A DNA stretch of 64,000 nucleotides from Deltaproteobacteria bacterium. GTDB lineage: Bacteria; Bdellovibrionota_B; Oligoflexia; Oligoflexales; Bog-1112. This document shows, piece by piece, positions 12,668 to 56,147 of the stretch; within the stretch, counting starts at the first letter, position 1, and the number at the start of each line of letters is the position of its first letter. The DNA lies in NCBI GenBank assembly GCA_947466225.1, contig CANIBL010000008.1, positions 1,779 to 65,778 on the forward strand. The letters are read 5' to 3'. The notes beneath the pieces were generated by a model that was given only the letters and a program-made list of their open reading frames with translations, searched no databases and was not told where the DNA came from. A program made the translations under genes and the position numbers.

Positions 12668-14455
12668 TCATCCATACAGCAATTGAATTTCTTTTTTATA
12701 GTGTTGTTCAATGATGGGGCGTTTAATTTTTTGTGTGGGAGTCAGCTCACCTTCGGCTTCGCAAAATCCTGCATCCAAAATACAAAATCGCTTCAACGTT
12801 TGTACACGGGCTAACCCAGCATTGATATGTTGAATCTCTGCCTCAAAGTAGGCATATAAAATCGGACAGTGCGCCAATTCTAACCGAGAGTTGGCTTTAC
12901 TACCTCGTTGCCCCGCTTGCACGCGCGCCATTTCCACATCGAGGGTAATCAACAAACTAAGATGCTTGCGTTGATCTCCAATTACCACTGCATGCTCGAT
13001 ACCAGGGATCTTGCTTACTTGGCTTTCGATCATCTCCGGAGAAATATTCTCTCCCCCTGCTGTAATGATCAAATTTTTCTTTCGACCCTCAATGCACAAA
13101 AATCCCTCTGCATCTAAACTACCCAAATCCCCTGAATGAAGCCATCCATCTTCATCAAGAGGAAATGAATCCGTATCATACAAATACCCCATACAAACAT
13201 GAGGGCCTCGCATGAGAACCTCTCCATCCGATGCAATTTGCACTTCTGTACCCGGAATTGGTTTACCTGCATATCCCGGTTTGTATATACCCGGAACAGA
13301 TACTGTGGTTGGACCCGTGCACTCACTCATGCCATATATTTCATACAACGGCAGATTGAGTCCAAGAAAAAACTGTAGGGTATCTTGTCGAATGGGCGCT
13401 GCCCCTGTTACCGGCAAACGGCATCGATCCAGCCCCAAACTGCGCTTGACTTTTCCATATACCAATCGTTCCATGAGGGAAAACAAAAGCGAAGTAGGTT
13501 GGCCTGCCTGATAAAGTACTGCCTCCTGTTGCCCAATTTTTTGTGCCAGTGCGAATAGTTTTCGTTTCCATATTGGAGCTTGTTGCACCTGAAACGTAAT
13601 TTTGTTTTGAATTTTTTCCCATACTCTTGGGACACCAATAAAAAAAGTGGGCCGTACCAAACCAAGGGCCTGTGGCAATTGGGATAAGCTTTCGGCAAAC
13701 ACCACTTGAGCCCCAGAAAGAATCGGGCCATATAACGAATTGATTTGTTCCGCAATGTGACTCAACGGTAAATACGAAAGCACCACATCTTGGGCCTCCA
13801 AGCGAAAGCTCATCTCCATAGCCGTATGCGTTGTCCACAACAAGTTATGGTGGGATAGCATCACAGCCTTGGGATTTGCGGTAGTTCCCGAGGTATACAC
13901 CAATGTAGCCAAATCTCCGGGTTTTTGTGCGTCCATAGCTGCTTGCAAGTGGGAGCCGGGAATCGAAGTGCCTGTTTGTAAAAATGTCGCCCATGATACA
14001 CAAGCAGGTCCTGCAGGTTCTTGCACGGGCTCTATTTGCACAACATGAAGTCCACTAGGTCGCCCACCAACTTGACTGCGAAAGGCATCCGATTCAACCA
14101 CCAAAACCTTTGCTTCACTATGTTGCAAAAGATAGGCAATCTGTTCGGCAGAAGAGGTTGGGTAAATGCCGAAAGGAACATGACCGGCCAAAATACTGCC
14201 CAAGTTTGCTACCAGCCATTCCGATCGATTGCTGCCCAAAATCCCGATTCGGGATCCATGCGGTAACGAATAGGCATGCAAGGCTTTGGCAAATGCACAA
14301 CATTGGTCCCAATATACGCGCCAGGATTGGGTATGTACGCTACCCAATCGAATTTGTCCCAAGGCTGGAGCTGAAGACATATGCAAGGCAATCTCACGAA
14401 AAGCGTGGGGGATCGTATACTGCATGGCTGGTCTCATTTTTGGAATTTTTTCCAC
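12668..14455 (-). CDS. AMP-dependent (long-chain) acyl-CoA synthetase
   Basis: AMP-binding signature LVYTSGTTANPKAVMLSH, plus TGD and GEL.PT.K.KR C-terminal motifs; 595 aa. Confidence 0.85.
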   Translation of the reverse strand: MEKIPKMRPAMQYTIPHAFREIALHMSSAPALGQIRLGSVHTQSWRVYWDQCCAFAKALHAYSLPHGSRIGILGSNRSEWLVANLGSILAGHVPFGIYPTSSAEQIAYLLQHSEAKVLVVESDAFRSQVGGRPSGLHVVQIEPVQEPAGPACVSWATFLQTGTSIPGSHLQAAMDAQKPGDLATLVYTSGTTANPKAVMLSHHNLLWTTHTAMEMSFRLEAQDVVLSYLPLSHIAEQINSLYGPILSGAQVVFAESLSQLPQALGLVRPTFFIGVPRVWEKIQNKITFQVQQAPIWKRKLFALAQKIGQQEAVLYQAGQPTSLLFSLMERLVYGKVKRSLGLDRCRLPVTGAAPIRQDTLQFFLGLNLPLYEIYGMSECTGPTTVSVPGIYKPGYAGKPIPGTEVQIASDGEVLMRGPHVCMGYLYDTDSFPLDEDGWLHSGDLGSLDAEGFLCIEGRKKNLIITAGGENISPEMIESQVSKIPGIEHAVVIGDQRKHLSLLITLDVEMARVQAGQRGSKANSRLELAHCPILYAYFEAEIQHINAGLARVQTLKRFCILDAGFCEAEGELTPTQKIKRPIIEQHYKKEIQLLYG

Positions 14456-40527: not shown

Positions 40528-40660
40528 AAACAAAAGCGCATGGTGATAGACAGAGTACCCAAATACCTGATGCATCCACTACCGTTGCTGCCTTCCGACC
40601 CTGGCGGAATTCGCGGGGCATCATCACCTGGGCTCTGCCTACCACCATACGCTTCTGCGC
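40528..40660 (-). ncRNA. ffs: Signal recognition particle RNA (small, 4.5S type)
   Basis: Reverse strand reads ...ccgccagggtcGGAAggcagcaacgg..., the domain-IV apex with a GGAA tetraloop and conserved GGCAGCA 3-prime strand. A long closing helix pairs cagaagcgtatggtggtaggcagagccc with gggtactctgtctatcaccatgcgcttttg, followed by a U-run. Sits upstream of dnaX, a common synteny. Ends are +/-10 nt. Confidence 0.8.
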
Positions 40661-54280: not shown

Positions 54281-54320
54281 GAGGGGGATTCCCCTCGATC
54301 GTGAGAAATACCCAACGTAC
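54281..54320. repeat. Family-2 intergenic repeat copy (palindrome CGAGGGGGATTCCCCTCG + GATCGT)
   Basis: gagggggattcccctcgatcgtgagaaatacccaacgtac aligns with 18298-18335. Confidence 0.5.
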
Positions 54321-55039
54321 TAGAATCCCAGACGTGTCATTTCGGTAGTCAATGCTCGGTAGTCTGCATCCATGCTACGGATACTGTCTACTTGGCATTG
54401 GCCTTGGCGTTGTTCTGTACGTTGGCCTTGGCGTTGTTCTGTACATTGACCTTGACGTTGTTCTGTGCGTTGGCCTTGACGTTGTTCTGTACGTTGGCCT
54501 TGGCGTTGTTCTGTACATTGACCTTGACGTTGTTCTGTGCGTTGGCCTTGACGTTGTTCTGTACATTGACCTTGACGTTGTTCTGTACGTTGGCCTTGAC
54601 GTTGTTCTGTACATTGGCCTTGACGTTGTTCTGTACGTTGGCCTTGACGTTGTTCTGTACGTTGGCCTTGATCTTGGCCTCTAGAATCTCCGGTTAAAGA
54701 GGCATAGGCAGCCACAACCGCTTGATAGGCAGTTTCAATGTTGGCACGTTCTTGTTGACGTTGGCTCTTTTTTTGTGCAGCGCCGCTTTGAGACAACACT
54801 TCTCGCAAATTGCCTACAGCTTGGTTAAACTCCGTTCCTTCTTCTGTAGAGTGTGTCAAATTGCCTGAAAGCTCGATGGCACGTCGATAGGTATCGGTGG
54901 CTTGTGCAGATGTACCATTGAAACTACTGCTAGTACCCGTGCTAAAGGTGTTTCTCATGGATTGCATAAATGGTCTTGCTGACAAAACAGGCGCCATGAA
55001 CAAAGAAGCACACATAACTGTACGTAGAGCGACTCGCAT
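54320..55039 (-). CDS. Secreted protein with eleven GQ[RC]TEQRQ octapeptide repeats
   Basis: Start at MRVALRTVMCASLFMAPVLSA (signal peptide). Helical N-domain, then a repeat array with R/C alternation. Short C-terminal tail. Confidence 0.6.
   Translation of the reverse strand: MRVALRTVMCASLFMAPVLSARPFMQSMRNTFSTGTSSSFNGTSAQATDTYRRAIELSGNLTHSTEEGTEFNQAVGNLREVLSQSGAAQKKSQRQQERANIETAYQAVVAAYASLTGDSRGQDQGQRTEQRQGQRTEQRQGQCTEQRQGQRTEQRQGQCTEQRQGQRTEQRQGQCTEQRQGQRTEQRQGQRTEQRQGQCTEQRQGQRTEQRQGQCQVDSIRSMDADYRALTTEMTRLGF
54398..54661. repeat. 24-bp tandem repeat, 11 full units (plus partial flanks)
   Basis: Units ttg[g/a]ccttg[g/a]cgttgttctgt[a/g]c[g/a], counted one by one. Units 2-3 are identical to units 5-6 (72-bp higher-order periodicity). 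Confidence 0.95.
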
Positions 55040-55237
55040 ACTTACTCCTAACAAAAAAAATGGTGAACTTTCATGAACCGTATCTTATTTCTATCTTGAT
55101 TGTAAATGGTGTTTTTTGTGTTTTCATAAAAATATGATCTGGTTACCGCCGACAAAGGAAAGAAAATCTGCTGGGCCCTTCCGAAATTTTGAGATACAAT
55201 TCGTCCTTATCTGAAGGAGACCGTAGGAGTTTTTACG

Positions 55238-55507
55238 ATGGCGAAGAAGTTATTTGTTGGTGGGCTTAGCTGGAACACAGACGACAATCTATTGCGAGAG
55301 TCGTTTGGCAAATTTGGCATTGTGGCAGACGCACGGGTAATCTTAGATCGAGATACGGGACGCTCTCGTGGATTCGGTTTTGTTACCTTTGACGACGACA
55401 ATGCGGCCAAGAGCGCCATCGCTACAATGGATGGTAGCAAATTGGATGGGCGCAACATTCGAGTAAATGAAGCGCAAGAACGCCCCCCTCGTCAGGGTGG
55501 CTTCTAA
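55238..55507 (+). CDS. RNA-binding protein, single RRM domain
   Basis: RNP-2 KLFVGGL and RNP-1 RGFGFVTF motifs; 89 aa. Confidence 0.9.
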   Translation: MAKKLFVGGLSWNTDDNLLRESFGKFGIVADARVILDRDTGRSRGFGFVTFDDDNAAKSAIATMDGSKLDGRNIRVNEAQERPPRQGGF

Positions 55508-55529
55508 AAACGCCGATAAGAAGGCCCTT

Positions 55530-56147
55530 TCAAGGGGCCTTTTTTTTTCTCTCCCGTAAGACCTCCTGCAAACGATCTTGCATGTGAGAAACCCACTCTG
55601 TGAAAAGAGTCAATTCAAAATCTTGTATCTCTCTTTTGATTTCAGTGGACAGACCCAATTTTTGTTTCATTTGTTCCATCTCATCCAAATGCCCAACCTC
55701 TTCTCGCAAGATACTTTGCAACGAAAAAGGCGCTCCGTAGGCGGCCAATACCTCTTCATAACAGGTGTATAACCAGGTGGCGCGTTTTTCAATGTAATAG
55801 GTCGTCAAGACATAGCATCCTTCTCGTGTGGCAACAGAAGATTCGCTAGATAAACAACGGGCAATAAAAAGCTCCAACCGATCAAGATACCGTCGACGTC
55901 GACCATCTAACCAAGGAGACGACATCGGCACGCCCAATTTGCATGCCTGCTTCTGGAAAAAATAAGCATGACGCGCTTCCTCTGCCGCATGTTGAAGAAG
56001 GGATAGATCTGTATTGGAGCGGGTCTGGTATCGCATAATCTTCTTGGCACCACAATTCTCCAACTCGCTCAAGGCAGCTAGAAATCCCGCCTGTAAACGC
56101 GAGTCTTGTACGATATGTGTGAGTACCTCTTTTAGTTCAACGTCCAT
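55530..56147 (-). CDS. Ferritin-like di-iron carboxylate protein, translationally coupled to bioA
   Basis: Four-helix pattern with E (SELENCGAKK), ExxH (AAEEARH), E (CYEEVL) and ExxH (REEVGH). The ATG lies 16 nt inside the bioA 3-prime end, with GGAGG 5 nt upstream. Confidence 0.55.
   Translation of the reverse strand: MDVELKEVLTHIVQDSRLQAGFLAALSELENCGAKKIMRYQTRSNTDLSLLQHAAEEARHAYFFQKQACKLGVPMSSPWLDGRRRRYLDRLELFIARCLSSESSVATREGCYVLTTYYIEKRATWLYTCYEEVLAAYGAPFSLQSILREEVGHLDEMEQMKQKLGLSTEIKREIQDFELTLFTEWVSHMQDRLQEVLRERKKKAP

Follow-up and report, generated by a model that had tools for sequence, protein, structure and literature searches.

A putative BioE-type di-iron oxygenase encoded after bioD and bioA in an Oligoflexia-like bacterium

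BioE and related routes to the pimeloyl moiety

BioE was described in December 2025 as a ferritin-like non-heme di-iron oxygenase of Elizabethkingia and Chryseobacterium which, with O2 and a reductant, cuts C14–C18 acyl-CoA or acyl-ACP at C7–C8 to yield pimeloyl-CoA or pimeloyl-ACP and a Cn-7 acid (PMC12704756). It complements an E. coli ΔbioH strain only aerobically, the E. meningoseptica enzyme (EmBioE) depends on E26, E53, H56, E125, E155 and H158, and the published locus is bioL/bioEFD/bioBA (PMC12704756). The family was then extended to Flavobacteriaceae, Chitinophagaceae, Sphingobacteriaceae, Flectobacillaceae, Burkholderiaceae and Chlamydiaceae, with a distribution search set at >40% identity and >85% coverage to EmBioE (PMC12915131). 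CpBioE of Chlamydia psittaci is monomeric and ACP-specific, with E41, E68, H71, E140, E170 and H173 as essential ligands; EmBioE and CpBioE thus differ in oligomeric state and carrier preference (PMC12915131). Mutagenesis showed that the acyl-pocket residues L22, Y117, I124 and L131 of EmBioE are necessary (PMC12704756, PMC12915131), and the corresponding set in CpBioE comprises W33, L37, L40, I48, L105, V135, T136, I139, L146, Y147 and Y150 (PMC12915131). Substitution of F24 in EmBioE also blocked activity.

An O2-dependent C7–C8 cleavage of long acyl-ACP to pimeloyl-ACP has been proposed for BioI (CYP107H1) of Bacillus subtilis as well (PMC12704756); BioI is, however, a heme P450, unrelated in fold and cofactor. 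The closest solved structure according to the BioE authors is that of cADO, which shares with BioE the ferritin-like di-iron oxygenase superfamily and fatty-chain substrates, but catalyses C1 deformylation and has no bio-gene context.

Here we analysed a window of 64,000 nucleotides from a Bdellovibrionota/Oligoflexia-like organism (GCA_947466225.1, contig CANIBL010000008.1). Its ORF at 55530–56147 very probably encodes a divergent BioE ortholog, that is, a predicted pimeloyl-forming di-iron oxygenase that would start biotin synthesis. An earlier note on this DNA had proposed that the ORF product is an uncharacterised di-iron oxygenase supplying the pimeloyl moiety by a BioI-like C–C cleavage. 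Homology to EmBioE, the ligands, the pocket and the operon all support the functional part of this idea, since the reaction has been demonstrated for the homologs EmBioE, CiBioE and CpBioE (PMC12704756, PMC12915131). The description as uncharacterised no longer holds, as the family has meanwhile been named and characterised.

The coupled bioD-bioA-bioE genes

The three genes lie on the same strand in the order bioD-bioA-bioE (Table 1). The assignment of bioA is secured by two equivalog models, TIGR00508 (505 bits, cut-off 405) and NF004624 (494.9 bits, cut-off 494), and that of bioD by TIGR00347 (119 bits, cut-off 83). The starts of bioD and bioA used here differ from the longest-ORF coordinates. 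Most likely bioD begins at ATG 58041, because the gene call on the source scaffold gives 205 aa and the E. coli BioD alignment begins there, and bioA most likely begins at ATG 57427; the scaffold calls concur for all three genes (205, 431 and 205 aa).

Table 1. Features of the putative biotin operon, in window coordinates
Feature	Coordinates	Strand	Basis
bioE homolog, 205-aa ferritin-like di-iron oxygenase (predicted)	55530..56147	-	ORF with ATG start, homology, predicted ligands
bioA, adenosylmethionine-8-amino-7-oxononanoate transaminase, 431 aa from ATG 57427	56132..57427	-	TIGR00508 and gene call
bioD, dethiobiotin synthase, 205 aa from ATG 58041	57424..58041	-	TIGR00347, E. coli BioD alignment, gene call
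GGAGG Shine-Dalgarno of bioE, within the 3' end of bioA	56152..56156	-	read from sequence
ATGA common to bioD stop and bioA start	57424..57427	-	read from sequence
GC-rich hairpin between convergent bioE and RRM-protein genes	55518..55544	.	terminator-like site, 12 pairs, called on + strand
95-bp intergenic region 5' of bioD, shared with divergent 516-aa gene; presumed promoter region	58042..58136	-	inferred

The bioE ATG (56147–56145) lies 16 nt inside bioA, as the earlier note had stated, and bioA ends in TAA at 56134–56132; the note's figure of 5 nt between GGAGG and the start codon needs correction, as the spacer is 4 nt long (CAAG). The ATGA overlap of bioD and bioA that it described is present, read as 57427–57424. 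We describe bioE as translationally coupled to bioD-bioA. Upstream of bioD neither a consensus promoter nor a known bio operator was found, and the divergent 516-aa gene there (58137–59687) has no Pfam match.

At the other end, the hairpin likely serves as a terminator for both directions, and would mark the end of the bio transcript. It overlaps the final 15 nt of bioE, so the C-terminal KKKAP tail of the protein derives from the stem and the T-run; the C-termini of close homologs differ from this tail. The convergent gene (55238–55507, +) encodes an 89-aa RRM-domain RNA-binding protein (PF00076, E 1e-22). Beyond it lies a 244-aa ORF without Pfam match (54320–55054, -), in which a 24-nt unit is repeated 11.4 times at 54398–54671 with 91% identity, encoding approximately (GQRTEQRQ)n with some units reading GQCTEQRQ. 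The sole Rfam match of the window is a bacterial small SRP RNA (RF00169, 61.7 bits; 40545–40640, -), and flagellar and LPS genes are present on the scaffold. The source is a metagenome scaffold of 66.6 kb whose 2-oxoglutarate dehydrogenase E1 is, among named proteins, nearest (55–57% identity) to those of Bdellovibrionota and Oligoflexales MAGs and of Pseudobacteriovorax; the host resembles an uncultured member of the Bdellovibrionota/Oligoflexia.

With E. coli queries, tblastn found no match to BioB, BioF, BioC or BioH in the window. Pfam and NCBIfam scans for rival pimeloyl genes took in 43 further ORFs and revealed no P450, BioW, KAS III or MocR protein; the absence of known pimeloyl genes noted earlier thus stands for every window ORF that reaches 180 aa. 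Two candidates were considered and rejected. The sole class I SAM methyltransferase found in the window (31545–32495, +) scored 24 bits against a BioC cut-off of 185, and a putative esterase (35442–36554, +), considered as BioH, matched no NCBIfam model; both lie ~20 kb away from the bio genes. A FadD-like long-chain fatty-acid-CoA ligase (12668–14455, -; FadD11 model E 7e-112, under the cut-off) could supply acyl-CoA, and is likewise unlinked to the bio genes. The regulator BioL of the E. meningoseptica locus is missing too: tblastn with EmBioL matched nothing in the window or in 80 homolog loci, and no window ORF of 180 aa or more encodes a GntR/MocR protein. A BioE need not be accompanied by BioL, because the Chlamydia BioE cluster also lacks it (PMC12915131). 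The closest relative (L001/L088) retains bioB-bioF-bioD-bioA-bioE while the window has no bioB and bioF; the bio operon seems to have been split in the window organism, where the divergent 516-aa gene lies 5' of bioD.

Relationship of the window protein to characterised BioE enzymes

To compare the window protein with the published enzymes we derived EmBioE and CpBioE fragments by translating the primers for mutagenesis and cloning that Table S2 of PMC12915131 lists. These align in register with the window protein at 49% (EmBioE) and 57% (CpBioE) identity, values which refer to conserved cores, and together they span every ligand motif. The CpbioE primers of that table fall into two sets encoding different BioE-like sequences, AYILVTYAIELRASELYP and YVLVTSAIEMRAAELYPIYHDILK, and residue 106 is given as D106 in the legend of Fig. 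S9 and the plasmid table of PMC12915131 but as H106 in both name and sequence of the primer. Care is needed when using the published numbering of Cp residues.

A search with profile A2 retrieved a 209-aa E. meningoseptica protein (P0207) beginning with MKSIIDIII, which contains all EmBioE primer-encoded fragments. Its locus has a divergent GntR+aminotransferase gene (BioL), then E-bioF-bioD, then bioB-bioA, as published, and these fragments and the locus together confirm that P0207 is the E. meningoseptica BioE. The window ORF product aligns with it at 35% identity over 197 residues (E 2e-30, ~94% coverage), and profile-profile comparison of the window and EmBioE families (hhalign) gives a probability of 100% and E 2.1e-60 over 200 columns. 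With 35% identity the protein stays under the >40% used in PMC12915131, which explains why the lineage is missing from the published distribution of BioE; that cut-off is a search setting and not a biochemical definition. Like the enzymes of E. meningoseptica (BBD33_16475) and Chryseobacterium indologenes (PMC12704756), which are ferritin-like di-iron oxygenases of ~205–210 aa, the window protein combines the E/ExxH/E/ExxH set and the acyl-pocket residues with clustering of its gene with late biotin genes.

The ligand set that the earlier note had read in the 205-aa ORF is borne out: E30, E57 and H60 (in HAAEEARH), E120, and E150 and H153 (in REEVGH). These six residues align with E26/E53/H56/E125/E155/H158 of EmBioE and with E41/E68/H71/E140/E170/H173 of CpBioE. 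All are invariant in an alignment of 14 sequences, and 157 of 161 representatives of the family keep them; of the remaining four, two are truncated sequences. The spacings of 27 and 30 residues within the two ligand pairs are the same in EmBioE and the window protein. The middle spacing is 63 residues against 72 in EmBioE, because the window clade has an α2–α3 connector shorter by 9 residues.

Most residues of the acyl pocket match as well. L22, Y117, I124 and L131 of EmBioE correspond to L26, Y112, I119 and L126 of the window protein, and I48, T136, I139, L146, Y147 and Y150 of CpBioE to I37, T116, I119, L126, Y127 and Y130; L37, L40 and L105 of CpBioE are also conserved, so that identical residues occupy the pocket at L26, L29, I37, L88, Y112, T116, I119, L126, Y127 and Y130. 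The two differences from CpBioE, W33 to F22 and V135 to T115, are conservative and common in the family. K46/K47/I48 of CpBioE, an enzyme compared here as primer-derived fragments, correspond to K35/K36/I37 of the window protein.

Residues in contact with the carrier are less conserved in the window protein than those of the pocket. K32 and R87 of EmBioE correspond to K36 and R85; R31 is replaced by K35, F24 by E28, Q88 by R86 and H91 by D89. These positions vary across the family, with Y, L, F, M or E at position 28. The window protein hence differs from EmBioE in its CoA-contact residues, in E28 for F24 and in the shortened connector, as well as in the locus order (bioD-bioA-bioE against bioE-bioF-bioD), in the absence of the MocR regulator BioL, and in its host, which is Bdellovibrionota/Oligoflexia-like and not a member of the Weeksellaceae. 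CpBioE is encoded, like the window protein, in a bio cluster without BioL (PMC12915131).

General profile libraries are silent about this protein. No Pfam model reached its cut-off on the 205-aa ORF and NCBIfam release 20 gave no match; AurF (PF11583), a model with a cut-off of 29.6 bits, scored 13.5 bits (E 0.042), and we dismissed this match as superfamily-level noise. The AlphaFold2 model, built from profile A1 (the window ORF and 13 homologs, 14 sequences), is all-helical with pLDDT 91.3 and pTM 0.87, and places one element of the ligand set on each of the long helices 16–39, 48–70, 104–136 and 144–163. Foldseek found no significant match to this model in the PDB: the best was 3dde, a heme-oxygenase-like DUF (E 0.16, TM 0.55), with ferritins, Dps and R2lox ranking next. 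When PDB sequences were searched with a profile, the only matches were marginal ones to the designed Due Ferri (E 0.002), RNR R2 (0.11) and cADO (0.14–0.3), all of them ferritin-like di-iron proteins. The 3dde match led us to consider a heme-oxygenase-like di-iron fold. We did not adopt it, because a four-helix E/ExxH/E/ExxH arrangement is ferritin-like and the sequence-profile matches are all to ferritin-like proteins. It is thus the motif, the helix pattern and the homology to BioE that carry the ferritin-like assignment, with no significant structural match.

Distribution, genomic context and alternative readings

Among 5.8 billion proteins, a word-indexed search recovered just 13 homologs of the ORF, none of them named, and profile A1, run against 1.84 billion representatives, found 727 clusters at 50% identity, of which 286 lay below E 1e-30. 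The profile also picked up at least 486 relatives in the species genomes of GTDB. The majority belong to Bacteroidota, in the families named by the BioE papers, and the others include MAGs labelled Parachlamydiaceae, Bacteriovoracaceae, Oligoflexales, Holophagae, Comamonadaceae and 'Deltaproteobacteria'. One database entry stands apart: a 1911-aa 'gingipain domain-containing' protein from the assembly of the freshwater mussel Potamilus streckersoni (P0054, KAK3582292.1) has a BioE-like N-terminus (E 3e-52) and probably stems from bacterial (Bacteroidota-like) contamination or from fusion of gene models.

We surveyed 80 loci of species-representative genomes (L001–L080) by tblastn with bio proteins of E. 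coli, the window and Elizabethkingia. bioA lies directly upstream on the same strand in 49 loci, 25 of which have the complete bioB-F-D-A-E order; bioF is directly upstream in one, and in 30 (~38%) there is no bio gene in the 10-kb flank. Homologs without linkage to bio genes, which the earlier note had named as evidence against a role in biotin synthesis, do therefore exist, alongside the 49 that follow bioA. In the 10-kb flanks of these loci we found no homolog of BioC, BioH or BioL and no gene for BioW, a P450 or KAS III. In the closest relative (P0005/L001, 67% identity) the order is bioB-bioF-bioD-bioA-bioE with an equal 16-nt overlap of bioA and bioE, a Parachlamydiaceae homolog is found in the B-F-D-A-E order, and the deep-branching homologs P0013 and P0012 also come after bioA. 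At the P0013 locus an alpha/beta hydrolase gene (Hydrolase_4; L091 3432–4379, +) lies directly 3' of bioD-bioA-bioE. The neighbours of the 30 standalone bioE loci (for example L007, L015, L019, L038 and L039) include no common partner. The homolog P0010 is not bio-linked, and its flanking genes (L094 3862–5580, -, and 7181–8722, +) encode an AMP-binding (C-terminal)/PP-binding/thioesterase protein and a FadL-like (Toluene_X) outer-membrane fatty-acid transporter.

The window protein, P0001–P0007 and L001 form a deep clade in a neighbour-joining tree, and in this tree the clade falls outside the Bacteroidota/Chlamydiae group that holds the characterised BioE enzymes. The Bdellovibrionota/Oligoflexia lineage is mentioned in neither PMC12704756 nor PMC12915131. 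It is possible, and we suggest it tentatively, that the window clade represents a distinct early-branching BioE subtype with a remodelled carrier surface (Glu at the Phe24 position, an Arg-rich shortened α2–α3 connector and Asp for His91) and perhaps another specificity, and that BioE extends far beyond seven families.

What speaks against reading the window protein as BioE is the 35% identity, the deep branch, E28 for F24, R86/D89, the shorter connector, the absence of bioF and bioB from the window and the 30 unlinked loci out of 80. Several of these features would fit a protein of the BioE family that is functionally shifted, with di-iron/O2 chemistry still performed on an acyl chain but with another carrier, strictly ACP or a dedicated one, another chain length or another product feeding BioF. 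The deep branching of the clade, the replacement of the essential F24, the Arg-rich stretch R83–R86, D89 for H91 and the 9-aa shortening of the connector that bears these carrier residues all point in this direction, and oligomeric state and carrier preference already set EmBioE apart from CpBioE (PMC12915131). However, the ligands and the acyl pocket are conserved, the position after bioA is the same in Bacteroidota and Parachlamydiaceae, and position 28 is variable family-wide, so we regard such a shift as unlikely.

Far less probable is that the protein is a ferritin- or rubrerythrin-like accessory of the biotin enzymes (one that, for example, donates or stores iron or scavenges peroxide) rather than a pimeloyl synthase. 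Some database sources do call members of the family 'rubrerythrin' or 'bacterioferritin', the weak Foldseek matches include ferritins and Dps, and BsaP is a known auxiliary protein for BioB (PMC12704756). Yet the window protein is homologous over its full length to an enzyme for which pimeloyl-forming activity has been demonstrated, retains the hydrophobic pocket residues, has no rubredoxin domain and no significant ferritin-type profile match, and is encoded in an operon from which bioB is absent. The least credible reading is a coincidental adjacency of bioA and an unrelated cADO-, AurF- or MiaE-like di-iron oxygenase, for which one could cite the weak AurF (E 0.042) and cADO (E 0.14–0.3) matches, the ~38% of homolog loci that are not bio-linked and the one homolog beside FadL-like transporter and AMP-binding/PP-binding/thioesterase genes, but the AurF and cADO matches are far below the family cut-offs, the gene order after bioA is kept across several phyla and the 16-nt overlap within the clade, and the counts over 80 loci argue strongly against it.

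As a BioE ortholog, then, the window protein probably uses O2 to make pimeloyl-ACP or pimeloyl-CoA out of long-chain acyl thioesters. On the model of EmBioE and CpBioE, it would bind long-chain (C14–C18) acyl-ACP or acyl-CoA, consume O2 and an external reductant, and oxidatively cleave the C7–C8 bond to release pimeloyl-ACP/CoA and a free Cn-7 fatty acid. This resembles the cleavage proposed for BioI; no P450 gene turned up in the window. BioF, which would be encoded elsewhere in the genome, would condense the pimeloyl thioester with alanine, and the co-transcribed, translationally coupled BioA and BioD would perform the two steps after BioF. BioE may be the organism's sole pimeloyl route.

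Because the chemistry and the role of BioE are already published, no new question is opened here. What is new is modest: the lineage, the clade-specific changes of the carrier surface and evidence for a family much larger than reported. The comparison allows a function to be assigned to a gene that Pfam and NCBIfam models leave 'hypothetical' and extends the BioE route to a lineage unnamed in the founding papers; with a large family, mostly found directly after bioA, it should also be useful for building an annotation model. If the window clade is indeed a distinct subtype, its carrier or chain-length specificity could differ and the BioE route, at 727 clusters, would be far wider than the seven reported families. 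The divergent carrier-contact residues offer a natural variant for studying the choice of BioE between ACP and CoA, and for the organism itself the putative BioE would explain how the pimeloyl starter of biotin could be made without BioC and BioH.
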